Shown here: one piece after another, positions 33,905 through 63,545 of the stretch
How positions within the stretch are numbered: position 1 is the stretch's first letter
Layout: every line of letters begins with the position of its first letter
Assembly (NCBI GenBank): GCA_002497905.1
Contig: DAFJ01000073.1
Coordinates: 3,929 to 67,928, forward strand
Length of the DNA: 64,000 nucleotides
From: Euryarchaeota archaeon UBA251
GTDB taxonomy: Archaea; Thermoplasmatota; Poseidoniia; Poseidoniales; Thalassarchaeaceae
Direction: 5' to 3'
Notes under the pieces: generated by a model
Database searches by the model: none
The model's input: only the letters and a program-made list of their open reading frames with translations
What the model was told of the DNA's origin: nothing
Translations under genes and position numbers: made by a program

Positions 33905-36808
33905 ATGGGCGAGGATTCGGGGGCCAATTCTACTCCCGCCACCACATCTAATTGGCATGTAATGAGTGCCGATGAGGTTCTAGATTTTCTTGATACAAAT
34001 CGGGATGGTCTTAGTGAATCAGAGGCCCTCCGAAGAGCTGCTGAAATTGGCCCTAACAAGTTAGACGAGGAAACCCCTACTCACTGGATATGGAAATTAG
34101 TTGATCAATACCGTGATCCGATGGTTTACCTTCTCCTTGCGGCTGCAGCCATCGCCTTCTTATTCGAACCTGAGGACAAGGGTACTCCAATCTTCATTGT
34201 AATCGCTCTGAGCCTTAACGGAATTTTCGGCTACATGCAGGAGGCGAAGGCTGAGAGGGCGATGGGTAGTCTGAAGGAGATGCTAGTCGGCTCCTGTGTG
34301 GTTCTTAGAGATGGTAAGGACGTTCGTGTAACAACGGAAGAACTCGTGCCTGGAGATCTTGTATTTCTTGATGAAGGTATGAACGTCCCTGCTGATGTAC
34401 GCATTATTGAATCACACAATCTAGCTATCGACGAAGCAACATTGACTGGAGAGTCGAATCCTGTTGCGAAAGTCACTTCATCCTTCTCCGAGGATGTGAT
34501 GCTAGCCGATCGCAAGAATATGGCTCACATGGGTACCGTGGTTTCCTCCGGTCGGGGTTGTGGCGTTGTAGTTGGTACAGGGATGAATACACAATTGGGC
34601 CGTCTCGCGGCTGATCTCGCTAAGGTCGAAGCACCTAAGACACCACTAGAAATCAAGCTCGAGACACTTGGACGATTCTTAGGATACGTCGCTATCTTCG
34701 CAGCATTACTTATCGTAACTCTGAGCCTTGGTAAGGCTTACCTGATTAATGGTATGCGAGGAGATGATCTCTACGCAGTTCTATCTGAACAATTCCTTGT
34801 TGCAGTGGCTATATTCGTGGCTATCGTACCCGAGGGGCTTCCCATCATTCTTGTTATCACCTTGTCAATCGGCATGAGAAATATGGCTAGGCACAGGGCC
34901 ATCATTCGTAAGATGAAAGCTGTTGAGACACTTGGTAGCACGACAGTCATTTGTTCGGACAAGACAGGTACGCTTACTACTGGCGAGATGACTGCACGTC
35001 GTTTTCACTTCAACGGCGTCTCCTATGATGTATCAGGTCGCGGCTTTAATCCTAATGAGGGTGGCCTTCACATTAACGGGGCAAAGGTATCTGAGGCCGA
35101 TCGTGCTGAACTGACGTCCATGCCTGCGTTCCGATGGATGATGGGTAGTGCTTTACTCGCCCAGAATAGTAACGTGCGACAGGCAGGATCCGTTTGGCAA
35201 GGCGTGGGTGACCCGACAGACACTGCATGTGCTGTTCTGGGTTGGAAACTACATTCGTCGGTAGATGATTTCAGGAAAATGCACCCCCGTTTTCGAGAAT
35301 TCCCGTTCGATCGTAGTCGGAAGAGAATGTCGACTATTCACGAATTTGAGGGCAAGCGTCGCCTCTTTGTTAAAGGGGCTGCGGGGAATCTCGCGAAGAT
35401 TTGTGATCGTACGGTTGAGAATGGTGAGATAGTTCCCTTGACTGAAGAGAGATTGCAACGTTTCCGCGAAGCTAACGAAGAGTATGCGGGTGATGCGTTA
35501 CGAATTCTTGGTTTCGCGACACGTGAGATTCATGAAGGCGAGGACATCGATGATGTCGAAGAAGTAGAAAAGGGCCTTATCCTTCTAGGGATAGTCGGCA
35601 TTTCCGATCCTCCGCGAATTGAGGTCCCCCAGGCTATTGCGACCTGCAATGAGGCAGGGATTCGTGTCATCATGATTACTGGAGACCACAAGTCAACCGC
35701 TGAAGCAATAGGTGCGGAGATTGGGATATTCTCAGGAGATGATCTATCCATTCATGGATCCGAACTCCGTGATATGTCTGATGATGAGTTGGATGCTCTT
35801 CTTGATCGTGTAGCAATCTTCTCGAGGACTACTCCTGATCAGAAACTCAGAATCGTCGACCGTCTCCAAAAGCAAGGACATGTCGTTGCAATGACTGGAG
35901 ACGGAGATAATGATGCACCAGCTCTTTCAAAGTCCAATATCGGCATCTCAATGGGCAGAGGTGGTACTGATGTTGCCCGCGATGCCTCGGACATGGTACT
36001 TCAGGACGATGACTTCTCTTCGATTGTCAGTGCCGTGGATCAAGGACGTAGAATATATCAGAACATTCGAAATTTCGTTCGTTATCAGATTAGTACGAAT
36101 GTTGCCGCAGTGACACTTCTCATATTTACTGGAATTTTCTTCGGTTGGACTGGGGAATGGCTTATTCTTACTCCAACTCAATTACTCGTCATCAATATCC
36201 TAATGGACGGTCCTCCAGCGGTTGCTCTAGGCATTGAGGAACAGACAAAGGATGTGATGAAAGAGCCACCTAGATCCATTGACGAAACACTACCTACGCC
36301 GCCCGATATCTTCCTGATTCTTTTCCTTGGATTCATTATGGTCATTGGAACTGCTAGTGTGTTCTATTTCGCAGGCGGGGATATGATTACTAATGCACCT
36401 TGCTCGCCCGGCCCTCTTGGTGAATCAGCATTCGGAGTAGTAGGTGATTGTGATGAGGAAGGGTGGACACATTATGCTGAGGATCGTTTCGCTTCTGCAA
36501 GAACGAGTGCCTTTGCCGTATTCATCTTCTTCCAATTGATGAACGTCATGAATTGCCGTTCGAACGAAGTGTCAGCATTCCGCTTAGGATTAACATCCAA
36601 TAGGTGGATTACCGTCAGTTTTGCGATTTCTACATTCATGCTACTATTCATGGTCCAGTCCCCATCGTTCGCTGGATTCAGAGTCGGAGAGATGGTATCT
36701 ACAGTACCGCTGTCTGGTATTGATTGGTTGGTTGTCTTCATGGTAGCGTCCTCTGTATTTATCGCTGAGGAACTACGCAAACTCTTCTGGCCAAAACCAA
36801 AGGCATGA
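33905..36808 (+). CDS. P-type cation-transporting ATPase, type II (SERCA/PMCA-like, probable Ca2+ pump)
   Basis: LTGESNPV (TGES), PEGLPIILVITLSIG, phosphorylation site ICSDKTGTLT, MITGDHKSTA, hinge MTGDGDNDAPAL. Confidence 0.9.
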   Translation: MGEDSGANSTPATTSNWHVMSADEVLDFLDTNRDGLSESEALRRAAEIGPNKLDEETPTHWIWKLVDQYRDPMVYLLLAAAAIAFLFEPEDKGTPIFIVIALSLNGIFGYMQEAKAERAMGSLKEMLVGSCVVLRDGKDVRVTTEELVPGDLVFLDEGMNVPADVRIIESHNLAIDEATLTGESNPVAKVTSSFSEDVMLADRKNMAHMGTVVSSGRGCGVVVGTGMNTQLGRLAADLAKVEAPKTPLEIKLETLGRFLGYVAIFAALLIVTLSLGKAYLINGMRGDDLYAVLSEQFLVAVAIFVAIVPEGLPIILVITLSIGMRNMARHRAIIRKMKAVETLGSTTVICSDKTGTLTTGEMTARRFHFNGVSYDVSGRGFNPNEGGLHINGAKVSEADRAELTSMPAFRWMMGSALLAQNSNVRQAGSVWQGVGDPTDTACAVLGWKLHSSVDDFRKMHPRFREFPFDRSRKRMSTIHEFEGKRRLFVKGAAGNLAKICDRTVENGEIVPLTEERLQRFREANEEYAGDALRILGFATREIHEGEDIDDVEEVEKGLILLGIVGISDPPRIEVPQAIATCNEAGIRVIMITGDHKSTAEAIGAEIGIFSGDDLSIHGSELRDMSDDELDALLDRVAIFSRTTPDQKLRIVDRLQKQGHVVAMTGDGDNDAPALSKSNIGISMGRGGTDVARDASDMVLQDDDFSSIVSAVDQGRRIYQNIRNFVRYQISTNVAAVTLLIFTGIFFGWTGEWLILTPTQLLVINILMDGPPAVALGIEEQTKDVMKEPPRSIDETLPTPPDIFLILFLGFIMVIGTASVFYFAGGDMITNAPCSPGPLGESAFGVVGDCDEEGWTHYAEDRFASARTSAFAVFIFFQLMNVMNCRSNEVSAFRLGLTSNRWITVSFAISTFMLLFMVQSPSFAGFRVGEMVSTVPLSGIDWLVVFMVASSVFIAEELRKLFWPKPKA

Positions 36809-38064: not shown

Positions 38065-38895
38065 ATGCGTACGGATGTCATTGGTCGTGTGTCATTTGCG
38101 AATTGTGATCCGTTGTTCCATGGTCTTGACCCTAAATGGAAGGTTCTACCTGCACCTCCTTCGTGGTTGACTGGGCATCTCCTGCGTGGTGAATGCCTAA
38201 TTGCACCAATCCCAATGGCTGACTTAGCGAGAAATGCTGACACTCTCTGTGCGATTGATTCAATTGGAATTGCCTCCGATGGAGGGGTTGGGTCTGTACT
38301 CCTGTTTGGTGATTGTCCCGTTGAGGAAATGAGGGATATTGCAGTACCTACGGATTCCTCTACTTCGAGGACATTGCTACCATGGCTTCTATCTGAGCGC
38401 GGATTCCGGCCACGACTCATAGAGATGGGTCCGAATCTAGAATCTATGCTGGAACGATGCGATGGGGCTCTATTGATTGGTGATCGTGCAATCCATCACG
38501 CTCACCTTCAGCCAGACCTCGTTCGAATGGATCTTGGAGATGAATGGTTAGACATCACTGAGATGCCAATGGTATTCGGTGTATTCTGTGCCCGCCAAGA
38601 TGCGGATAATACAGCGGTTAGTGATGCTATTTCAGATCTTGAGAGCGCCCTATCTAGATTTGAGAATGAGCCTTTGTTTAGACAGGAGGTAATCGCAAGA
38701 TCAGCAAAAGTCACACGATTTAGTGTAGGTCGAATGGAGACCTATTTTGGATCCGAGGTAAGGAATCGATTGACACCTAAAGATCGTGCTAGTATGCAAC
38801 GATTTGCGACAGATGTCTGCGGCCTTGAGGGTGAAGTTCCCTGGTGGGGCGATAATCAGTCAGAACCAGTTAGTCGCCGCAATGCTGCATCGTAA
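38065..38895 (+). CDS. mqnA: Chorismate dehydratase MqnA (menaquinone via futalosine)
   Basis: N-terminus MRTDVIGRVSFANCDPLFHGL resembles the MqnA start (RIGRISYLN..P). PBP-like length of about 276 aa, next to the mqnE/C-like gene. Start taken at ATG 38065 rather than the track start 37903. Confidence 0.7.
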   Translation: MRTDVIGRVSFANCDPLFHGLDPKWKVLPAPPSWLTGHLLRGECLIAPIPMADLARNADTLCAIDSIGIASDGGVGSVLLFGDCPVEEMRDIAVPTDSSTSRTLLPWLLSERGFRPRLIEMGPNLESMLERCDGALLIGDRAIHHAHLQPDLVRMDLGDEWLDITEMPMVFGVFCARQDADNTAVSDAISDLESALSRFENEPLFRQEVIARSAKVTRFSVGRMETYFGSEVRNRLTPKDRASMQRFATDVCGLEGEVPWWGDNQSEPVSRRNAAS

Positions 38896-41420
38896 TCTTC
38901 GTCATCATCTGTGTTATCGAATTCGGAGCTATCCGGATTAACATCACTAGCTTCGAGAATCTCTTCCATTGTTACATCTCTAGTGACTCGTTTTGTCACC
39001 TTTCGCTTGGATGATCGACTTACGCGTCGTCGTCGAGTAGGTTCAGATGTCTCTGGTTCAGAGTATTCGTCTACTTCTTGTCTCTGATTAGGTGGTGCAC
39101 GAGGAGCTTTCTTCTGAATAGGTTCCTCGTTTGTTTTCTGTCGTTGATCAGGTGGTCGACGAGGTGCAGCCTTCGAGGTCACTTCTTCTTCGTTCCAGAT
39201 TTCTAGTTCTTCATCGAAATCCTCGTCGTCTTGCATTGTTTGTACGCTACCAATTGCCATTTCAAACTCTTCGAAATCAATGACTCCATTTCCATCTTCG
39301 TCCAAACTTTCCACTAGTGCTTCCAGTTGTGCCACTGGTAACGCAGCAATCTTGAGCGAGCGAAGTCCTGCGACTAGTTCATCTGATTCGAGTGTCCCGT
39401 TACCGTCTTCGTCAAAGCGATTAAACAGGTCCCGGACACTCATTTCATTATCTATCATCCATGACTCAAGTTTCTCCATTACTTGATCATAGACAAAGAG
39501 TGCACCACAATCAGAGCAGAGTAAAGCACCGGGAGAGTTCATCGATCCACATACCTCACAAATCTCCTCAAGTTCATACTCATAGGTCATGCGTCGCTTC
39601 AAAATTAGGAATATACTCGCGCCAACGGCGATTATGAGGGGGATAATTAGCAATGGTTGTAGAAGTGTGTCGAGAAAACTTCCTACAAGTGTGGGTTCTG
39701 GTTCTTCGGGAGGAATCACTTTGAGATCTAATACATCGCTCATGGTCCAAACGGTGGAGCTGTTCCTCAGTTCTCCCTCTACCATGATGTGGACAACTGC
39801 TGGTCTACTATCGATGCTCTGCAGGATACTACCATCTCTTGATTCGAGACCTTGGAGTATCCGTACATCATAGGGTTCCACCATGCGTGTCGGGTCAATC
39901 TTCAACGTTGTAGTCCAAGTCATCCTCACATGACTCAACCAACCTACGCCGTTTTGAAGAGTTGAAGTTCCACTCAATCCCTCGCTGATTTCACAACTCG
40001 TCTCTGCTCCCCAAGGGACGCTACCATTGATCCTCACAATGTCAATCCACTCTTGTGCGATGGAATCTAAATCCGTCGGACCACACAGTTGTCGTGCCAT
40101 CATTCCAGCTTCTGAGAAGGAAGTTGTTGCATCGTCAGTAAGGGCGACTGCAGATATGGTGCGAATGTCTCTTGAAAATTCCAACGGCAAGGTAATTGTC
40201 TCCTTGACAGTTAGTGTGCCATTCGGAGAAAGGTCAAGTTCAATCTGCCGTATGTTATCTAAGTCGGCATTGACGCTACAATCTGAACCCTCTGCGCAGG
40301 TGTTGTCGAATGAGTCCGGAATCATGTCACCGTCATCATCATTGTCCAATGAGTCCGGAATACCATCTCCGTCTGTGTCGACTCCATCAGCGGTAACTCC
40401 TGTTTCGTGAGGTATAGAATGGTGTATCGGGATGATTCCTGTATTGGTTGCGAAGGCAATTTCAGAAGAATCTGCAGATAGTGAAAATACATGTGTCTGC
40501 ATACCGAGCTGCATTCTCCAATTGAGTTGTTGATTGATTGTGTTCCAGGATTCCAACCATTGTTGTTCACCAACCGTTCCGGTTAAGGCGATAATCTCGT
40601 CATCGAGAAAGATTTCCTCAAATTGAATGACAGATGATTCCGTTTGAATGATTGATAGGAATGAGTAGGGATCTGTAGCCTGTCGTTGAACGATTGCATC
40701 ATTGAGTGACCATATTACTTCAGCACCATTGTGGTTGAATGCGCAGTCAGATATGGGTGCATCCACTGACCATGAATGAAGGATAGATAGGTCATCGAGA
40801 TTGAGGAGAGTTGCGAAATGGTCACTGTCATCCGTTAATCCAACGATTACGCGCGAAGTTGTGTTATCTACTGCAGTGCATCCGACTTCCCCTCCAAGAT
40901 CCACAGATGCCTCTAACTGGAGCCCGCTTTCGTTGATGTTGTATACTACTAGGTTATCATCTGCTGTCGAGAAGATTACCTGCGTTGAATTAACAGCTTG
41001 GACGCGAATTCCATCTACCGGTTCTTCTGTGTGGATTCGCTTGTCTGTGTGGTCTGCAACTTTCAGGGCAGTCACTGACGGGAGACCTGACATCGGTTGA
41101 ACTTGGGCTACAATCAACTTGGATGAATCAGTTGTCCAAGTGATATCGATAATCTCATGCCCACTAAATTCACCCATGGCGGTGGAGAAGAGGAGCTCTC
41201 CATCTGTTCTCCAGACGTTCACGTAGACCATGTCTGCCGAGGCAAACATTGAGCCATCAGGTGAGTACGCAACATCGATGATATCGGTGGCTGGCCTGCC
41301 ATCGAGTCGATTCATGTGTAGGCTATCATCGAGCACATGCACTGGCTCAGGTATGTCGGCTACGACGACAGGCAGGAGCAATAGCATGACAAGACATCCG
41401 CTGAGAACGCGAGCCCGCAT
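38856..41420 (-). CDS. Large type-I membrane protein: signal peptide, beta-propeller-like ectodomain, TSP3-like Asp repeats, TM helix, cytoplasmic zinc ribbon + EF-hand pair, charged tail
   Basis: Signal MRARVLSGCLVMLLLLPVVVADI (ATG 41420; the track TTG 41462 is an alternative). DVAYSPDGSMFASAD WD-like blades. DTDGDGIPDSLDNDDDGDMIPDSFDN. TM LLIIPLIIAVGASIFLIL. CEVCGSMNSPGALLCSDCG. EF loops DEDGNGTLESDE and DEDGNGVIDFEE. Confidence 0.8.
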   Translation of the reverse strand: MRARVLSGCLVMLLLLPVVVADIPEPVHVLDDSLHMNRLDGRPATDIIDVAYSPDGSMFASADMVYVNVWRTDGELLFSTAMGEFSGHEIIDITWTTDSSKLIVAQVQPMSGLPSVTALKVADHTDKRIHTEEPVDGIRVQAVNSTQVIFSTADDNLVVYNINESGLQLEASVDLGGEVGCTAVDNTTSRVIVGLTDDSDHFATLLNLDDLSILHSWSVDAPISDCAFNHNGAEVIWSLNDAIVQRQATDPYSFLSIIQTESSVIQFEEIFLDDEIIALTGTVGEQQWLESWNTINQQLNWRMQLGMQTHVFSLSADSSEIAFATNTGIIPIHHSIPHETGVTADGVDTDGDGIPDSLDNDDDGDMIPDSFDNTCAEGSDCSVNADLDNIRQIELDLSPNGTLTVKETITLPLEFSRDIRTISAVALTDDATTSFSEAGMMARQLCGPTDLDSIAQEWIDIVRINGSVPWGAETSCEISEGLSGTSTLQNGVGWLSHVRMTWTTTLKIDPTRMVEPYDVRILQGLESRDGSILQSIDSRPAVVHIMVEGELRNSSTVWTMSDVLDLKVIPPEEPEPTLVGSFLDTLLQPLLIIPLIIAVGASIFLILKRRMTYEYELEEICEVCGSMNSPGALLCSDCGALFVYDQVMEKLESWMIDNEMSVRDLFNRFDEDGNGTLESDELVAGLRSLKIAALPVAQLEALVESLDEDGNGVIDFEEFEMAIGSVQTMQDDEDFDEELEIWNEEEVTSKAAPRRPPDQRQKTNEEPIQKKAPRAPPNQRQEVDEYSEPETSEPTRRRRVSRSSKRKVTKRVTRDVTMEEILEASDVNPDSSEFDNTDDDEDYDAALRRLTGSD

Positions 41421-41458
41421 GCGAATAGCAAGGATACGCCTGTTATATCCGTATGGTC

Positions 41459-41935
41459 TCAATCAGCATAATTGAGACGTTTTGATGAGACATACTCTAG
41501 TAAATCGAGGGCAACTTCGCAGGATTCTGCTACTACAACAGCATCGTCATCCACGAATTCCTCTAGGGTTGCGAGAGCTGTTCTATCTCCGATTGCCCCT
41601 AAGGCTTCAGCTGCTTCATGGCGCACCATGACATCTTCCTCTCCATCGGCCAACCGATCGATTAGATGTGGGACTGCTGCAGAATCCTGCATCTGCCCCA
41701 TGACATACGCAATCTCGTGTTTGAGTAGCGCAGAATCAGATTCGAATGCTGCGGCTAACGCATCTACAGCATCTTTCCCACCAATATTTCGAAGCGAGAA
41801 TAGGGCACGCATTCGTAGAAACATTCTAGCAGATTCATCGCAGAGCGTGGATTTCAGCGAATATATGTCATTCTCATCACTGGGTGGTGCAGGGTCGACA
41901 GAATCAAACTCTGAACGTTCAGGTCGTTGGTCCAC
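41459..41935 (-). CDS. Half-length deoxyhypusine hydroxylase (DOHH)-like HEAT-repeat protein
   Basis: Two His-Glu motifs in DOHH-type context (SALLKHEIAYVMGQMQDSAAVP and DVMVRHEAAEALGAIGD), plus RMRALFSLRNIGG, AESCEVALDLLEY and terminal NYAD. 158 aa. GTG start 2 nt after the mqnD stop. Confidence 0.75.
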   Translation of the reverse strand: MDQRPERSEFDSVDPAPPSDENDIYSLKSTLCDESARMFLRMRALFSLRNIGGKDAVDALAAAFESDSALLKHEIAYVMGQMQDSAAVPHLIDRLADGEEDVMVRHEAAEALGAIGDRTALATLEEFVDDDAVVVAESCEVALDLLEYVSSKRLNYAD

Positions 41936-41937
41936 GC

Positions 41938-42804
41938 CTATTCCTCCGCTCCAATGAACTCAAGCGCATCCACGTCAAGATCAGCCCGGATCATCCCAAT
42001 TTGTTGGCCTTCCTTGAGAAAACGTCGTACTGCTTCTCTACCTTCAGGGCCATAGTCGATGGTTCGTTCGTTAACATACATCTGAACAAACTCTTCATTT
42101 GTCTCTTCGTCAATTCCTCGTCCCCATTCGATTGCGAATGCAAGGCCTTCTTCAGGGTCAGCAATCGCATGTGCTATTGAAAGTCGGACATGTTCCGTGA
42201 TGATATCGCATGCATCATTTCCGAGATCGCGTCGGACGACATTTCCACCAAGGGGAAGCGGCAGTCCTCCAGTCATTTCAGCCCACATCTCGCCAAGGTC
42301 AGCGACGAGATGGAGGCCTTCATCCTTCCAAGTTAATTGCCCCTCGTGGATGATAAGTCCTGCGTCAACATTGCCTGCCTTGACCTCATCCATGATTTTG
42401 TCGAATGGGACGACAACAGTATCCAAATCACCTACCATGATTCTAAGCGCGAGATGGGCTGATGTCTTTATCCCCGGTATCGCGATTTTTCCATCAAGTA
42501 TCTGATCGATGGTTTTCTCACCTAGTGTGACGATTCTCGGGCCATATCCCTCGCCCATCGAAGCCCCGCAGTTCATTAGAGCATAATCTTCGAGTACGTC
42601 GGGTAATGCATGGATTGAAACAGCTGATACTTCGAATTCGCTGTTCAATGCCTTTTGATTAAGTGTCTCAATGTCGAGAAGTTCATGTTTGTACAGGTAT
42701 GGAGTGGTATCGAAACGACCGGTAGTCATGGCATGAAACATGAATGCGTCGTCTGGATCCGGAGAGTGGCCGATGCGAATAGTATGGGATTCCCCTGAAG
42801 TCAT
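41938..42804 (-). CDS. mqnD: MqnD-like protein (1,4-dihydroxy-6-naphthoate synthase; MqnA/MqnD family)
   Basis: N-terminus IRIGHSPDPDDAFMFHAM matches the SPCPNDTF-type MqnD start. About 288 aa. Start taken at ATG 42804. Confidence 0.7.
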   Translation of the reverse strand: MTSGESHTIRIGHSPDPDDAFMFHAMTTGRFDTTPYLYKHELLDIETLNQKALNSEFEVSAVSIHALPDVLEDYALMNCGASMGEGYGPRIVTLGEKTIDQILDGKIAIPGIKTSAHLALRIMVGDLDTVVVPFDKIMDEVKAGNVDAGLIIHEGQLTWKDEGLHLVADLGEMWAEMTGGLPLPLGGNVVRRDLGNDACDIITEHVRLSIAHAIADPEEGLAFAIEWGRGIDEETNEEFVQMYVNERTIDYGPEGREAVRRFLKEGQQIGMIRADLDVDALEFIGAEE

Positions 42805-42827
42805 GTGACAGGACCGGCAGGTTCGGT

Positions 42828-42835
42828 GTAAAAAC
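42828..42835 (-). promoter_or_regulatory. Candidate TATA-like box (GTTTTTAC) for mqnD operon
   Basis: Centred about 27 nt upstream of ATG 42804. Confidence 0.25.
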
Positions 42836-42901
42836 GAATGTGTGACACTTGGGGTTCCTTTGGCCGCTGTCTTGAAATGCCTCGCTCGATTGTGGCATAC
42901 C

Positions 42902-43096
42902 ATGGTCGACGCAGAGAAACTCAGCATCGCTCGAGGTCAACTTGGACCTAAATGCGCATCGTGTGGATCACCTCTAATTTTCGCTGAGGCTTTGGTCATT
43001 GATTCTGAGTACCATTGCTTTTCTTGCTACGAGAAGGTCACTGGGGCATCTAGCGCTTCTGAGCCGAAGGAAGTATCTGGTCTCCGGATGGATTGA
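42902..43096 (+). CDS. Small zinc-ribbon protein (hypothetical)
   Basis: 64 aa from ATG 42902: CASCGSPLIF...YHCFSCYEK four-Cys ribbon. TTGAAATG box about 26 nt upstream. Confidence 0.4.
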   Translation: MVDAEKLSIARGQLGPKCASCGSPLIFAEALVIDSEYHCFSCYEKVTGASSASEPKEVSGLRMD

Positions 43097-58526: not shown

Positions 58527-60028
58527 TTCGCATCGATGGCTCCAGTCTCTCTCCGTCGGATGTGGCGGCCATCGTAGGCGGTGATTACGATGTGCACCTC
58601 GATGATACTTGCCGCGAAGCAGTCGAAATTTCTCGGCGGGCAGTGGAAGATATTGTTGCTTCCGGGCGACCCGCGTATGGAATCAATACTGGTTTTGGAG
58701 ACTTGGTTCGTGTTGCCATCCCTGACTCTGATCTGAAGGACTTACAGAGTAATTTAGTTCGCAGTCATGCATGTGGAATCGGAGAGGAAATGCCACCTGG
58801 TGAGGTCCTCGGAATGATGGCAATCCGTGCGAATTCACTCGTTACTGGACATAGCGGAATTCGATGGTCTACGATTCAGAGCCTTGTAGCCATGATTCGT
58901 GCAGGCATTGCCCCTGTTGTCCCTCGTATTGGTTCGCTTGGGGCCTCCGGTGATCTTGCTCCTCTTTCTCACATGGCATTGGGCCTGATGGGTGAAGGAA
59001 TGGTAAATGTTCGAAACAATGGAATTTGGCAGAAGGAAACAGCAGAGAATGCTCTTCGCACAGCAAGTATAGAACCGGTCGTACTTGAAGCAAAAGAGGG
59101 TCTTTCGCTCATCAATGGGACATCACAAATGTGCCTATGGATTTCTCTTGCAGAACAACGTATGAGTGGTTTGATGGCTGCTGCTGAGGTTGCCCTTGCA
59201 CTTTCAATCGAGGGTGCCCACGCTTCAATGACTCCATTCCATGAGCGATTACACCAAGTTCGTCCACATCCAGGGCAAATGAAGGTCGCCTCTCAGATGC
59301 GTCATCTATTATCTGACAGCCCTAACATGGCATCTCACGAAGGTTGTGAAAAGGTCCAGGACGCCTATTCCTTCCGATGCTCTCCCCAAGTGCTAGGTGC
59401 AATCCAAGAGTCACTCGATCGTGTTCGTTCCACCATCGCGATTGAACTGAACAGCACCACTGATAATCCTCTCATCTTCACAGATTCAGGTGATACAGAA
59501 GTAATCTCGGGGGGGAATTTCCATGGAGAGGTACTTGGAATGGTTTCTGATGACCTTCATCTAGCAGTCCACGAGATATCATCAATTTCCGAGCGTCGTA
59601 TCGCTAAGTTGCTAGATCCTGTTACAACAGGATTGACCGCATTTCTAGCTGCGGATCCTGGATTGAATAGCGGTCTGATGATTTTACAGTATGCTGCGGC
59701 AGCATCGGTGGCAGAGATTCGTGCACGAATCGGTCCAGCGACAGCTACTAACATCGTTGTATCGGCACAGCAGGAAGATCACGTGAGTATGGGTGCGACC
59801 GCATCTTGGATGCTTCTGCAATCAATCGATAACTGTGCGGCAGTGGTCGCGGCCGAGATGATTACTGCATCGGAGGCGATGAGTCACAGGAGCGAAGATG
59901 TAGGTCCCAATCTAATATCGCATCTTCAGATGATTCGTGATGTTGTTCCACTGAATCCAAGCGATTCAAGACGCGACGAAGGTATCGCTGCTCTTGTACC
60001 AATCATCCTTGAAGGACGTTTCATTTGA
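58523..60028 (+). CDS. hutH: Histidine ammonia-lyase
   Basis: MIO-forming GSLGASGDLAPLSH, YGINTGFGD, QEDHVSMG. The ATG overlaps the hutU stop (ATGA). Confidence 0.92.
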   Translation: MIRIDGSSLSPSDVAAIVGGDYDVHLDDTCREAVEISRRAVEDIVASGRPAYGINTGFGDLVRVAIPDSDLKDLQSNLVRSHACGIGEEMPPGEVLGMMAIRANSLVTGHSGIRWSTIQSLVAMIRAGIAPVVPRIGSLGASGDLAPLSHMALGLMGEGMVNVRNNGIWQKETAENALRTASIEPVVLEAKEGLSLINGTSQMCLWISLAEQRMSGLMAAAEVALALSIEGAHASMTPFHERLHQVRPHPGQMKVASQMRHLLSDSPNMASHEGCEKVQDAYSFRCSPQVLGAIQESLDRVRSTIAIELNSTTDNPLIFTDSGDTEVISGGNFHGEVLGMVSDDLHLAVHEISSISERRIAKLLDPVTTGLTAFLAADPGLNSGLMILQYAAAASVAEIRARIGPATATNIVVSAQQEDHVSMGATASWMLLQSIDNCAAVVAAEMITASEAMSHRSEDVGPNLISHLQMIRDVVPLNPSDSRRDEGIAALVPIILEGRFI

Positions 60029-60902
60029 TAGCACTGAGGTTCTCTTCCTCGATGCGGTCGAGAATCGAAACGATGTCCTCTAAGCTAGTCAACTGCATGC
60101 ATCTGAAGCGCATCTTCATGCGAACTGGGCTTGAGATGTATTCCGCATCTTCAATTCGTACAAGACATTCGGTTGCTGTGCGGATGTCTTGCTCAATTCG
60201 TTGGTAGGCTTCTCGAGCAAGGTCGAGATCAATAGAAATCGCATCGATTAGTGAAGCCACATCAAAACCGAATGAAGCCCATGCTTCTGCTCGTCGTAAT
60301 AGGGATGGATAGTCCATTGATTCACTAGGCAGGCGTGCAAGCATTGGCGGCACATCCTTCACAGGACCATCGGAATGGATTCCAATCTCGGGTTCCTGTA
60401 TCGTATCTTCGAGTTCTTCTGATTCGATTATATCCGTATCGCCAATTGTTAGGGATGGTGCTTCCCTACGCAATCTCGCCCATTCTGAATCACTCATTGT
60501 GCCAGGAGCGCCGACGATGATAACGGTCCATTCGCTCGTTCGACAGATATCTACAACTCCACGAACAAACTTCAGGACAGATTCGAATCCATTCGTTCTG
60601 ACAAGGAGTTCAACACCTTCCTGCCAAAGGATGCCTCTACCTTCTCGGATGGTTCGTTCGATAATCGAGAAGAGGTTCTCTAAAGTTGGACGAATAGCTT
60701 GGTCTACATCGCGATCTGTAATCCATTGTATGGAATGAGGTGTTGTTCTCGCAGTATCTGGAATTTGTTTTGGGTTCGTACGCGTGAATGCACGTATGGG
60801 TGTCAGTTTTCCATGTGTTCGGTGAAGTGCCATCAAAGAGGTCACTGGGTCAATGGAGGGTGCCAGTCGGACCGTTCCAGGTTCCAGCACCCCGTCACTC
60901 AT
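60021..60902 (-). CDS. DUF835-like protein with C-terminal helical domain (hypothetical)
   Basis: AFTRTNPKQI...IQWITD...LWQEGVELLVRTNGFESVLKFVRGVVDICRTSEWTVIIVGAPGTMSDSEWARLRREA matches my recollection of the DUF835 pattern. ATG 60902; the track TTG 60971 is an alternative. The 3' end overlaps hutH by 8 nt (convergent). Confidence 0.5.
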   Translation of the reverse strand: MSDGVLEPGTVRLAPSIDPVTSLMALHRTHGKLTPIRAFTRTNPKQIPDTARTTPHSIQWITDRDVDQAIRPTLENLFSIIERTIREGRGILWQEGVELLVRTNGFESVLKFVRGVVDICRTSEWTVIIVGAPGTMSDSEWARLRREAPSLTIGDTDIIESEELEDTIQEPEIGIHSDGPVKDVPPMLARLPSESMDYPSLLRRAEAWASFGFDVASLIDAISIDLDLAREAYQRIEQDIRTATECLVRIEDAEYISSPVRMKMRFRCMQLTSLEDIVSILDRIEEENLSAIK

Positions 60903-61037
60903 GGTTCCAGTTTCCTGTTCACTGGGTTCATCAATGGAATGGTTCCGAGCCGCCAAATCGAACCGATTCAAGCGTGAACCGTTATAGCGAGAATAGGACT
61001 CCTAAGCATGCGGCCGTAAGGTCGAGGGGAAGATAAG

Positions 61038-63236
61038 TTGGCTGATGATGAGAAAGATATGGCCACCTGTGGCGCTTGCCAGACCGAGGTTCCCGCGGAT
61101 TCCGAGAGTTGTCCAAACTGCGGCGTCTCTTTCTCTGGTGTCGTCGAGGATAACTTAGGCGAGTGTGGCGCATGTTCAGCCCTCGTCGCACTTGATTCGA
61201 AGACATGTCCTCAGTGTGGCGTACTCTTCGTGCATGATGATGTGGTTGCAGTTCTCGCCGATTGGATGACATCTACAGGCCTTGATGTTGAGACCTTGTT
61301 CGGACGTTTGGATACTGATGGAAATGGTCACATCGACACTGAGGAATTGCGCACCGGGTTGATTGCTCTCAAAATCGCGGCGTTGCCACCAGTCGAAGTC
61401 GACCGTCTTGTTGCAGAGATTGATCAAGATAACAATGGTGAAATTGAGCTTGGTGAACTACAATTCATCCTTTCCAGCGGTTCTATGCAGTATGCGGAAT
61501 CTGTTCTTAATCGCGTAATGAAGAAGCACGATATCTCTGATGCAGATGCTTTCCTCCAATTCGCGCGTTCCTTTGATGAAAATGAGAATCGATATTTGGA
61601 TCAGAAGGAACTCAAAAAGGCGGCTGAAGCCTTTGTTGACAAACCCGAGCCAGAAATGGTGGATGAACCTGAAGATGTTGAAGAAGAGGAGGTGGAAGAC
61701 GAATCTCCAGATGACGCTGAAGAGGTAGAGGCAGATTCCGAAGAGGAGGTAGAAGACGAATCTCCAGATGACGCTGAAGAGGTAGAGGCAGATTCCGAAG
61801 AGGAGGAAACTGAGGAAGTCACAGAATCCGAGGATTCCGATGCGGATGAAGAGATGGACTCAGCCTTTGCTACAATGATTTCCGAATCTACGGATGAGGA
61901 AGCTGTTGAGTCCGAAGATGATGAATCAGAAGACGATACTGATTCTGACGACGATTCCGACGATGATGAAGAGCAGGAATCTTCTGGAAAGGGTCGTTCT
62001 TTCGATCCTAGTTCGCTTATCGATGATGACGATGACAATGTCGGCGATGACGACGAAGAAGAATCGTCCGATGACATGGATGACCTCATTGATTCCATCG
62101 ATGATGATGGCAGTGATGGCGAAGATACTGATGAGGAGTCCGAAGAGGAGGAACTTGCTCCGATGGATCAGGAGAGTGCCGATGGCATCATGCTGGAAAT
62201 CGGTCGAAATCTGAACGAGTCAAACACAACCATTGACGCACTATTCGAAGGATTTGATGTTGATGAGAGTGGGGAATTGGATCACTATGAGTTTGCAAAG
62301 GGTCTCAAGAGCCTTGATTTAGCGGATCTCCCTCCACATGAGATTGATCGTATCGTCAAGTTCCTGGACAAGGATGACAACGGTAAAATCGATTTGAATG
62401 AACTCCGTTCAAACTTCAACGAATGGAATGTGCCTATTTCTGATCTTAAGCCCAAGCGTTTTGAGCCCGCAGGTTGGCAGAAGTTCTTCATGAAACAATA
62501 TGAGAATGTCTTCCCAGTTATGTATGTGCTATTGGCTCTGTTCATTGCTGGTCTTCTTGTCAACGCGCTTGTAGGGCCAGTTGATGGCTCTGGAGGAAAT
62601 ATCGCATTTGATGGAGAAGTCGGTGAATTCTCAGTTGAGAATAATTTCTACGTCGAACCTGGCGAAATATATCCTTGTGATAAGGCGATCCAGGTCACTA
62701 ATTGTGCGAACTCACTTACACCACTTGCTGGAGAGAATGGTTCCAGTTCAATGCCTAAGAATTTCTACTGGGATGGAATTGTCGGTATGGTCTTGGGCAT
62801 CGGTCTACTCATTGGAAGTGTGTATCTTCAACTTCAGACGAAGGGTTGGAGAGAGACAGTCCGTGCAGAACGAAAGGCAGCTTCTGAGGATTCAGAAGAT
62901 GATGAGGATTCCACCGAAGATGGATCGACAGATACAGATGATGCTGACGATGAGGAATCAGAAGAAGTTCCAGATGAAGACGCAGAAGATGCAGAAGACA
63001 CTGAAGTGGATGATGCAGAAGAAGAGGATTCAGATGAATCCGATGAGGCTGTAGAAGATGGCGGGGATGGAATTGACGTCGGAGACAGAGTCGGTGTGGA
63101 ACTTGAGGATGGCGAAGAGGCGTTTGGCGAGATTCTCGAATTCATCGAAGAAGACGACGAGGAATTCGTCGTTGTGTTACTCGACGATGGCGACGAGGTC
63201 GAGGTTGAGTTCGACATGATCTTCCTCGAGGAATGA
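61038..63236 (+). CDS. Two-TM membrane protein with two zinc ribbons, five EF-hand loops and long acidic repeats
   Basis: CGACQTEVPADSESCPNCG and CGACSALVALDSKTCPQCG. EF loops DTDGNGHIDTEE, DQDNNGEIELGE, DENENRYLDQKE, DVDESGELDHYE, DKDDNGKIDLNE. TM helices VFPVMYVLLALFIAGLLVNALV and IVGMVLGIGLLIGSVYLQL. TTG 61038 or ATG 61059 start. Confidence 0.8.
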   Translation: MADDEKDMATCGACQTEVPADSESCPNCGVSFSGVVEDNLGECGACSALVALDSKTCPQCGVLFVHDDVVAVLADWMTSTGLDVETLFGRLDTDGNGHIDTEELRTGLIALKIAALPPVEVDRLVAEIDQDNNGEIELGELQFILSSGSMQYAESVLNRVMKKHDISDADAFLQFARSFDENENRYLDQKELKKAAEAFVDKPEPEMVDEPEDVEEEEVEDESPDDAEEVEADSEEEVEDESPDDAEEVEADSEEEETEEVTESEDSDADEEMDSAFATMISESTDEEAVESEDDESEDDTDSDDDSDDDEEQESSGKGRSFDPSSLIDDDDDNVGDDDEEESSDDMDDLIDSIDDDGSDGEDTDEESEEEELAPMDQESADGIMLEIGRNLNESNTTIDALFEGFDVDESGELDHYEFAKGLKSLDLADLPPHEIDRIVKFLDKDDNGKIDLNELRSNFNEWNVPISDLKPKRFEPAGWQKFFMKQYENVFPVMYVLLALFIAGLLVNALVGPVDGSGGNIAFDGEVGEFSVENNFYVEPGEIYPCDKAIQVTNCANSLTPLAGENGSSSMPKNFYWDGIVGMVLGIGLLIGSVYLQLQTKGWRETVRAERKAASEDSEDDEDSTEDGSTDTDDADDEESEEVPDEDAEDAEDTEVDDAEEEDSDESDEAVEDGGDGIDVGDRVGVELEDGEEAFGEILEFIEEDDEEFVVVLLDDGDEVEVEFDMIFLEE
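61683..61796 (+). repeat. Two tandem copies of a 57-bp in-frame repeat (third copy partial)
   Basis: GAAGAGGAGGT(G/A)GAAGACGAATCTCCAGATGACGCTGAAGAGGTAGAGGCAGATTCC at 61683 and 61740. Encodes EEEVEDESPDDAEEVEADS. Confidence 0.9.
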
Positions 63237-63239
63237 GCA

Positions 63240-63545
63240 ATGAGTGATGCTTCCCCTTCGTATGAATCTCTTGAATCCTGTCCGGATTGTGGCGCACTGA
63301 GTCGAGTTGGTACGGTTCGATGCCCAGAATGTGGGCGCTTCCACGCTAACATTCACGTTCGTCAGGAGGCGACAGTCGAAGACGCTCGTCGTGAGGCAAG
63401 AACACGTTCTTCGACAGAAGTTGACCCCTCGTTATATTCCCTCGATCCTTCGGCTGCCATTGATATTGATGGCGATGAAGATGTCGAGGAAGTCTCCCGG
63501 CCGTGGGATGGCGGTTCCACTGATTTCAGATTCGAAGAGGAGTAA
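63240..63545 (+). CDS. Small acidic zinc-ribbon protein (hypothetical)
   Basis: CPDCGALSRVGTVRCPECG ribbon. Starts 3 nt after the EF-hand gene stop and ends 1 nt before the alaX ATG. Confidence 0.5.
   Translation: MSDASPSYESLESCPDCGALSRVGTVRCPECGRFHANIHVRQEATVEDARREARTRSSTEVDPSLYSLDPSAAIDIDGDEDVEEVSRPWDGGSTDFRFEEE

Follow-up and report, generated by a model that had tools for sequence, protein, structure and literature searches.

A Zn-ribbon and EF-hand module shared by two predicted membrane proteins of Poseidoniales, putative cytoplasmic calcium sensors

We analysed a 64,000-nucleotide stretch of the genome assembly of Euryarchaeota archaeon UBA251 (Poseidoniales, Thalassarchaeaceae; GCA_002497905.1, contig DAFJ01000073.1, positions 3,929 to 67,928 of the forward strand), hereafter called the window, in which the genes for two large predicted membrane proteins, A and B, encode the same fusion of a Zn ribbon to a pair of EF-hands. 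Poseidoniales are uncultured and among the most abundant planktonic archaea, and the Ca2+ concentration of seawater is 10 mM. To our knowledge, canonical EF-hand proteins are rare in archaea and the use of Ca2+ as an intracellular signal there is essentially unexplored. The gene for protein A (732 aa) lies on the plus strand at 61038..63236 and is the sole open reading frame (ORF) with these coordinates; its start codon is a TTG, GAGGGG lies 10 nt upstream of it, and orthologues keep residues 2-7. The gene for protein B lies on the minus strand at 38856..41420 and encodes 854 aa from an ATG, the longest ORF being 38856..41462 (868 aa). A first-pass annotation of the same DNA, made by a model from the sequence, had singled out the right protein as one of 868 aa at 38856-41420 and so mixed the two start codons; the ATG at 41420 agrees with the orthologues P0066 and P0069.

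The unit common to A and B is 107 residues long, colinear in the two proteins, and consists of a Zn ribbon, a helix and an EF-hand pair. In A it covers residues 40-146 (61155..61475, plus strand) and is made up of Zn ribbon 2 (C43, C46, C57, and C60), helix 0 (67-80), in which the Trp at A77 is invariant, and EF pair 1 (loops 92-103 and 129-140). It was delimited by BLASTP against B, invariant alignment columns, loop conservation and the helices of an AlphaFold2 (AF2) model, in which the predicted local distance difference test score (pLDDT) is 61-94 per block. The module of B (residues 618-724 of the 854-aa form; 39249..39569, minus strand) has one Zn ribbon, located ~10 residues past a transmembrane (TM) helix, followed by helix 0 and an EF pair. 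In BLASTP, A43-154 and B635-744 (868-aa numbering) align with E = 9e-21, 40% identity and 2 gaps. When just the ribbon and the helix next to it were compared, A and B gave a Smith-Waterman score of 77, as against 21 +/- 4.4 for shuffled sequences; with Cys held fixed the z value was 6.3, and 0/20,000 shuffles reached the observed score, both with and without Cys fixed. Since ribbon and helix are significant by themselves, the A-B similarity amounts to more than generic EF-hand likeness. The single ribbon of B is sub-threshold alone for Pfam DZR (13.8-15.6 bits), yet it aligns with ribbon 2 of A. A later segment of A, residues 402-456, matches the EF pair of B (B679-733, 868-aa numbering) with E = 7e-9. 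Both the colinear segment and the later EF pair of the same design had been proposed in the first-pass annotation, and both held up under significance testing. We concluded from these alignments that the modules of A and B are homologous.

A PROSITE-type EF-loop pattern matched A at residues 92, 129, 180, 407, and 444 and B at residues 684 and 721 (868-aa numbering); in a six-frame translation of the window it matched nothing outside A and B. AF2 put helices on either side of every EF loop in both models. The paired 12-residue loops of A and B are thus EF-hands by their ligands at positions 1, 3, 5, and 12, Gly at position 6 and hydrophobic residue at position 8. The Pfam families of the EF-hand superfamily agree: A scored 68.8 bits for EF-hand_6 (PF13405, cut-off 25), 57.9 bits for EF-hand_1 (PF00036, cut-off 25.4) and 50.5 bits for EF-hand_7 (PF13499, cut-off 30), and the matches of B, at 41.1 (EF-hand_7, cut-off 30), 36.3, and 33.4 bits, were all above threshold. 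The earlier description of every loop as canonical was mostly right and slightly overstated, as position 8 is L in place of I in two loops and position 5 is S in one; the EF-hand at A residue 180 is additional to the loops listed then.

We recovered 51 full-length orthologues of A (584-790 aa) from 80 loci and read conservation from the resulting 52-sequence alignment. All eight ribbon Cys are invariant (52/52), and EF1, EF2, EF5, and EF6 are canonical (Asp-1, Asp/Asn-3, Asp/Asn/Ser-5, Glu-12) in 51-52 of the 52 sequences, the loops of EF pair 3 (EF5 and EF6) in 51/52. Glu-12 of these four loops is found in every sequence that has a residue at that position, and position 6 is Gly or a small residue. 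Loss of the EF loops in orthologues, which the first-pass annotation had considered as an outcome that would speak against it, did not occur. The most conserved blocks of A are residues 1-140, 480-620, and 680-732. The number of EF pairs varies within the A family, from 2 to 7 pattern matches per full-length orthologue, and one variant (P0113, 751 aa) has an extra EF pair in the cytoplasmic segment after the second TM helix.

Protein A is composed of a double Zn ribbon, multiple EF-hands, polyacidic tracts, a two-helix membrane hairpin and a C-terminal barrel, all encoded on the plus strand. Zn ribbon 1 (CGAC-x10-CPNC, residues 11-28; 61068..61121), which is absent from B, has its four Cys invariant in 52/52 orthologues, and Pfam DZR (PF12773) spans residues 11-61 at 29.5 bits, just over its cut-off of 27.3. 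The shared module is followed by a second EF pair (residues 150-201; 61485..61640), recognised by the pattern match at residue 180, AF2 helices at 154-201 and Foldseek; EF3 is degenerate and the EF4 loop occupies residues 180-191. Polyacidic linker 1, predicted to be disordered (residues 205-375; 61650..62162; pLDDT <50), holds a 57-bp tandem repeat of 2.2 copies with 98% match (Tandem Repeats Finder) at 61683-61806, the end of which had been placed at 61796 in the first-pass annotation. A second helix 0 and EF pair 3 (residues 378-463, loops 407-418 and 444-455; 62169..62426), identified by BLASTP and AF2 helices, stand directly N-terminal of TM1. The membrane hairpin (62499..62837), defined by hydropathy, invariant columns and positive-inside counts, comprises TM1 at about residues 488-514, an outer loop of ~63 aa and TM2 at about 578-600. 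Beyond it lie polyacidic linker 2 (residues 618-679; 62889..63074), also predicted to be disordered by pLDDT <50 and composition, and a small C-terminal beta-barrel of SH3/Sm/Tudor-like type (63075..63233; AF2 strands 684-724, block pLDDT 79-92) with a conserved, hydrophobic-acidic tail (MIFLEE). Neither tRNAs nor RNA families were found in the region of A. The minus-strand Ser-rich ORFs within A (61601-62098 and 62834-63352) were rejected as shadows of the GAN-rich coding strand (GC skew 0.14).

The AF2 model of A, built from a 44-sequence alignment, has a mean pLDDT of 66.8 with a bimodal profile. It is confident over residues 5-205, 378-463, and 684-728, and its ordered parts include two beta-knuckle ribbons (8-60) and a five-strand C-terminal barrel (684-728), while the disordered stretches (210-370 and 622-680) are the polyacidic tracts. 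A Foldseek search of the Protein Data Bank (PDB) with this model returned calmodulin, CDPK calmodulin-like domains, centrin and the SCaMC regulatory domain with probabilities of 0.93-1.0 and E-values of 1e-3 to 2e-2, the modest E-values being due to the use of the whole 732-aa model as query; the best single structural match was ACF7 EF1-EF2 (TM-score 0.83). From the AF2 helices and the Foldseek matches, A residues 65-205 are modelled as a four-EF, two-lobe domain with a calmodulin-like fold. A profile of the C-terminal barrel gave only sub-threshold SH3, Sm, and Tudor hints (LSm5 E = 0.14, Myosin_N SH3, RimP SH3), and the NCBIfam model PRK14559 (Ser/Thr phosphatase) matched weakly across residues 8-247.

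The topology of A was deduced from charge distribution and cysteines. Across the orthologues, Lys plus Arg number 4.5 in the 19 aa ahead of TM1 and 4 in the 20 aa that follow TM2, and the 62-aa outer loop has 2.5 Lys plus Arg and 10 acidic residues. The loop contains two Cys (C547 and C556) that are invariant in the 52-sequence alignment, together with the motifs NSLTP and SMP. Zn ribbons need a reducing compartment. Taken together, the positive-inside counts, this requirement of the ribbons and the loop Cys pair lead to a predicted N-in/C-in arrangement with cytoplasmic EF-hands. The module of B would also lie inside, as deduced from its signal peptide and the KRRM sequence after its TM helix. 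The view that both are membrane proteins with the EF-hands on the cytoplasmic side, taken in the first-pass annotation, therefore agrees with two TM helices in A, with a signal peptide and one TM helix in B, and with the positive-inside counts.

Protein B is built in the order signal peptide (MRARVLSGCLVMLLLLPVVVA), ectodomain of ~570 residues, one TM helix (39588..39659, minus strand; hydropathy, with KRRM next to it on the cytoplasmic side), shared module, and a polybasic and acidic tail. The ectodomain is beta-rich with weak Pfam beta-propeller matches, and the C-terminal tail has polybasic stretches and a conserved end motif (...DYDAALRRLTGS). Two Asp-rich DxDxDGxxD motifs in the ectodomain (40302..40382, minus strand), read from the sequence in a region covered only by a weak NCBIfam BamM match, appear by reading to be thrombospondin type-3-like; given these motifs, B may bind Ca2+ on either side of the membrane. 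Orthologues of B are P0066-P0072 and P0240, and the AF2 model of B, from a 9-sequence alignment, is poor (mean pLDDT 49.9). Three closely spaced minus-strand genes run in the same direction here, namely that for B, a HEAT_PBS-repeat gene (41459-41935) and a VitK2_biosynth gene of the futalosine pathway (41938-42927); the same order recurs in a 44%-identity orthologue (L082, 273-4191), which makes a possible operon with no obvious logic.

All homologues of the A N-terminus came from Poseidoniales (Marine Group II) metagenome bins. Each Poseidoniales locus recovered, from either of the two named families, had one copy of A; the nearest family-named bin belongs to Ca. Thalassarchaeaceae (77% identity), and Poseidoniaceae-labelled bins gave 51-59%. 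Four loci with the typical Poseidoniales order HutU, HutH, DUF835, A (L032, L048, L069, and L073) are filed under Yoonia, Deltaproteobacteria, Rhodobiaceae, and Salipiger bins, and these bacterial labels are most likely due to mis-binning. Database entries for A are mostly truncated or frameshifted within the acidic tracts, where many contigs also end; such breaks and frameshifts were seen in the acidic repeats of loci L001-L008, L016, L030, L042, L054-L055, and L074-L075 and of proteins P0011, P0016, and P0020. They explain the 'partial hypothetical' annotations of the family: the gene is systematically broken in public assemblies at the acidic repeats and hence under-annotated.

We ran a profile made from the 107-residue unit against 1.84 billion representative proteins and rescored the best 150 matches per domain. 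The 30,853 matches at E <=1e-3 amount to the EF-hand superfamily. Among the best 150, the match extends over the entire module with its ribbon in 28 representatives, 27 of them at 143-177 bits and one at 105. These are either of A type, with the module at ~40-160 and 530-750 aa in total when complete, or of B type, with the module at ~617-724 of ~850 aa; the B type forms two clusters at 50% identity (for example, P0069 at 155.7 bits and P0240 at 143.2 bits). The rest are giant multi-EF proteins without the ribbon, whose best single unit scores at most 49 bits (calmodulin scores 34 bits) and which dominate the search because scores sum over 7-20 repeats. The ribbon-EF cassette was thus seen in exactly two architectures, A and B, among the best 150, a set that would leave out any third architecture under about 140 bits. 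The giant proteins themselves (P0099-P0247, 1-5 kaa) consist of 7-20 tandem units of a helix plus an EF pair, and one is encoded on a Joint Genome Institute metagenome contig (L083) amid unannotated genes.

Downstream of A, a gene for a small Zn-ribbon protein of 101 aa (63240..63545, plus strand) starts 3 nt past the A stop codon. The gap between the two genes is -4 to +7 nt in 35/35 orthologous loci, from which they are almost certainly co-transcribed. The small protein occurs order-wide, and a ribbon and aromatic motifs of its own are conserved (CPxCG...RCPECGxFH, DPSxYSL, and WxGGSTDFxF); no Pfam or NCBIfam family matched it above threshold. On the other side, divergent from A across a 66-bp spacer, lies a gene for a DUF835 protein (60021..60971, minus strand; 62.5 bits vs a Pfam cut-off of 33.1), which is kept beside A in most of the 80 loci and whose C-terminal 140 residues gave no domain match. 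DUF835 has been described as an inactivated KaiC (iKaiC) that forms an output domain in response regulators of archaea (PMC5847659). The DUF835 protein is a possible signalling neighbour of A, the adjacency being suggestive at most. The order HutU, HutH, DUF835 (minus), A (plus) and small Zn-ribbon ORF (plus) is found in nearly all 80 loci, down to ~45% protein identity; since HutU/HutH and the menaquinone-synthesis (Mqn) genes are equally conserved, this order reflects genome collinearity and is no evidence of functional linkage. We therefore rejected synteny as functional evidence, HutU, HutH, and the Mqn genes being as conserved as the candidate partners.

EF loops with Asp-1, Asp/Asn-3, Asp/Asn-5, Gly-6, and Glu-12 are Ca2+-selective, and pairs of the calmodulin type open upon binding. 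The reading that we favour, with moderate confidence, is that A and B are lineage-specific Poseidoniales membrane proteins that act as membrane-tethered cytoplasmic Ca2+ sensors with Ca2+-dependent partner interactions. Ca2+ leaking in from seawater would raise the cytoplasmic Ca2+ level and bind the Glu-12 type loops of A and B; the EF pairs would then open in calmodulin-like fashion, and this opening would alter which partners bind the cytoplasmic domains. The sensor of A would be the four-EF domain behind the two ribbons, with the third EF pair beside TM1, and the polyacidic linkers would tether these EF domains to the two-helix hairpin and the SH3-like barrel. The likeliest partner would be the co-transcribed small Zn-ribbon protein with its conserved aromatic motifs. 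The polyacidic tracts probably serve as low-affinity cation-binding sites or as electrostatic spacers. B would carry the module directly under the membrane as part of a receptor-like type I protein, and could couple an extracellular beta-propeller to the cytoplasmic polybasic tail.

Several points weigh against this proposal. Sensor, buffer and structural site cannot be told apart by sequence alone. The EF3/EF4 pair, half of the modelled four-EF domain, is present in 33 of the 52 orthologues (canonical in 19) and missing in the other 19. The receptor-like picture of B comes from hydropathy, secondary structure and weak Pfam matches, and the small Zn-ribbon protein is a candidate partner by operon structure only. 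Synteny in Poseidoniales is so general that the DUF835 adjacency may mean nothing.

The first alternative is that A is a membrane-tethered cytoplasmic Ca2+ buffer, in which Ca2+ entering from seawater would be soaked up by the EF-hands and, most of all, by the polyacidic tracts, with no signal transmitted. Of all proteins of the window, A is the most acidic by a wide margin (32.5% Asp plus Glu vs a window median of 13.9%); in its acidic linkers composition is conserved and sequence is not, all 52 orthologues have 26-37% Asp plus Glu and a net charge of -140 to -215, and the genome holds a Ca2+-pump-like P2A ATPase. All of this would suit a buffer. However, buffering leaves unexplained the invariant Zn ribbons, the two-Cys outer loop and the SH3-like barrel of A, the co-transcribed small Zn-ribbon gene, and B, which has the module and a basic tail; moreover, low-affinity carboxylate sites are, as a matter of general knowledge, mostly empty of Ca2+ at usual cytoplasmic levels. 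We consider a pure buffer unlikely, although it deserves to be kept in mind.

A bolder form of the sensor proposal would make A, the small Zn-ribbon partner and the DUF835 protein the core of a dedicated, order-wide cytoplasmic Ca2+-signalling pathway, with the ribbon-EF unit as a sensor cassette reused in B. We regard this extension as doubtful. If true, it would be a concrete candidate for archaeal Ca2+ signalling of the second-messenger type, in one of the ocean's most abundant archaeal orders.

The EF pairs might instead be structural or interaction domains, either constitutively Ca2+-loaded or Ca2+-independent, and A and B might be membrane scaffolds in the organisation of the envelope, division or transport, for which calcium would convey no information. 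Many EF-hand pairs do serve dimerisation or docking, the best single structural match (ACF7) is a spectraplakin, and Zn ribbons, SH3-like barrels and disordered linkers are typical scaffold parts. Against this, four loops retain their ligands at positions 1, 3, 5, and 12 almost perfectly across the whole order, and their position 6 is Gly or a small residue; this argues that metal binding has been selected, whereas purely structural EF pairs as a rule have degenerate loops (general knowledge). A scaffold role of this kind appears improbable to us.

In a further scenario, the hairpin of A would oligomerise into a pore or regulate a transporter, gated by the adjacent EF pair, so that A would be a Ca2+-regulated channel-like protein with two TM helices. 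Few parts of A are as conserved as the hairpin with its loop; TM1 has an invariant Asn and TM2 is Gly-rich, both termini are predicted to be inside as in the topology of two-TM channels, and the EF pair lies ~25 residues ahead of TM1. But a profile of the TM-loop-TM segment found nothing significant among PDB sequences and Pfam families (best PDB E-values 0.014, to hemocyanin, and 0.1, to a NavAb chimera), no selectivity-filter-like motif is recognisable, and the outer loop, predicted by AF2 to be partly beta, has low confidence (45-59 in most 10-residue blocks). This makes a channel very unlikely.

The first-pass annotation had further joined A and B with a SERCA-like pump into one calcium-responsive membrane system. 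The pump is a P2A-type ATPase encoded at 33905..36808 on the plus strand, with all five Pfam P-type domains. Its closest solved relatives are Listeria LMCA1 (2e-155), followed by SPCA1 and SERCA2. PEGLP in M4 is retained, as are Asn and Asp in M6, and the M5 Glu is replaced by Ala, as in LMCA1; we take the PEGLP Glu and the M6 Asn and Asp to be Ca2+ site II and the M5 Glu to belong to site I of SERCA. The Ca2+-type equivalogs of NCBIfam score best, yet below cut-off (662 vs 798 and 588 vs 703). The ATPase and B lie on opposite strands with two menaquinone-synthesis genes (MqnA-like and radical-SAM) between them, and A is 20 kb from B and 24 kb from the ATPase. Although all three genes fall in one 64-kb window, the pump has Ca2+-ATPases as nearest solved relatives and keeps its site II residues, and the B-Mqn-ATPase order is kept in the 44%-identity orthologue, a joint dedicated system is hardly credible in view of the opposite strands, the intervening genes and the 20-kb distance of A, the collinearity implied by a conserved order that also takes in HutU/HutH, OPT, transketolase, and tRNA synthetase genes, the order-wide presence of A as opposed to the two 50%-identity clusters found for B, and the sub-cut-off equivalog scores. 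The ATPase is best read as ordinary Ca2+ housekeeping, outside any dedicated system with A and B.

For the sensor proposal, the A family offers a defined target: every Poseidoniales locus recovered has it, its metal-ligand positions are strongly constrained, and its domains are small enough to express and titrate. The module offers a clean, testable entry point to Ca2+ sensing, its predicted function, in abundant uncultured archaea. If it senses Ca2+, it would provide a handle on Poseidoniales signalling, with the Zn ribbon as a new EF-hand fusion partner; if it does not, A would be just another lineage-specific membrane protein made from common parts.

We searched the literature on EF-hands in Poseidoniales/Marine Group II, on double zinc ribbons with EF-hands and on DUF835, and only two papers were relevant, PMC5847659 cited above and PMC9258230. 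In the latter, the Poseidoniales subgroup IIa and IIb modules together hold four families with calcium-binding domains that 'may be involved in signaling' (Meheust et al., 2022, BMC Biol, PMC9258230). A and/or B may be among these four, whose family numbers could not be mapped; unlike the present account of A and B, that work gives no architecture, Zn-ribbon link, topology or conservation analysis. Apart from that one line, no literature on the families was found, in keeping with the first-pass annotation, which had called the supposed system uncharacterised. The families also lack a curated name: against NCBIfam, A and B stayed below cut-off, as did the small Zn-ribbon ORF and the DUF835 protein. 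Neither a ribbon fused directly onto an EF pair nor the occurrence of such a fusion in a membrane protein that is order-wide and extremely acidic was found in the literature searched.

Among known systems, A is most readily compared with calmodulin, CDPK, and SCaMC, with which it shares paired 12-residue loops (Asp-1, Asp/Asn-3, Asp/Asn-5, Gly-6, and Glu-12) and, at residues 65-205, four predicted EF-hands; SCaMC and the CDPKs are precedents for the fusion of a calmodulin-like domain to a membrane carrier or an enzyme. Unlike these sensors, A is archaeal, has a Zn ribbon fused in front via an extra conserved helix, and has a polyacidic linker of ~170 residues leading to a membrane hairpin; the 34 bits of calmodulin against the module profile are generic, in contrast to the 143-177 bits within the family. 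The acidic Ca2+ buffers calsequestrin and CcbP (the latter cyanobacterial), known analogues for a buffering role, resemble A in extreme Asp/Glu content and large net negative charge. The acidic parts of A, however, are predicted disordered cytoplasmic linkers between folded domains, without sequence or fold relationship to either, and Pfam, PDB and fold comparisons gave no match to calsequestrin-type thioredoxin-fold domains. Prokaryotic proteins with canonical EF-hands like those of A and B include EfhP (PA4107, Pseudomonas aeruginosa), CasA, CabD, and calerythrin. EfhP binds Ca2+ with a dissociation constant of 13.7 uM, gains hydrophobicity with Ca2+ and mediates Ca2+ regulation (PMC9132961). 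In contrast to A and B, it is small, predicted periplasmic, has two EF-hands and is without a Zn ribbon, acidic tracts or membrane hairpin, and between these prokaryotic proteins and A/B we saw no homology beyond the EF-hand itself. The N-terminal DZR domains (PF12773) of prokaryotic membrane and signalling proteins have, like A, two CxxC-x10-CxxC knuckle pairs at the N-terminus, whereas in the A and B families, and in these only among the best 150 matches, the ribbon (the second one in A) runs straight into an EF pair. The parts, namely EF-hand pairs, DZR ribbons and an SH3-like barrel, are known and the arrangement is new.

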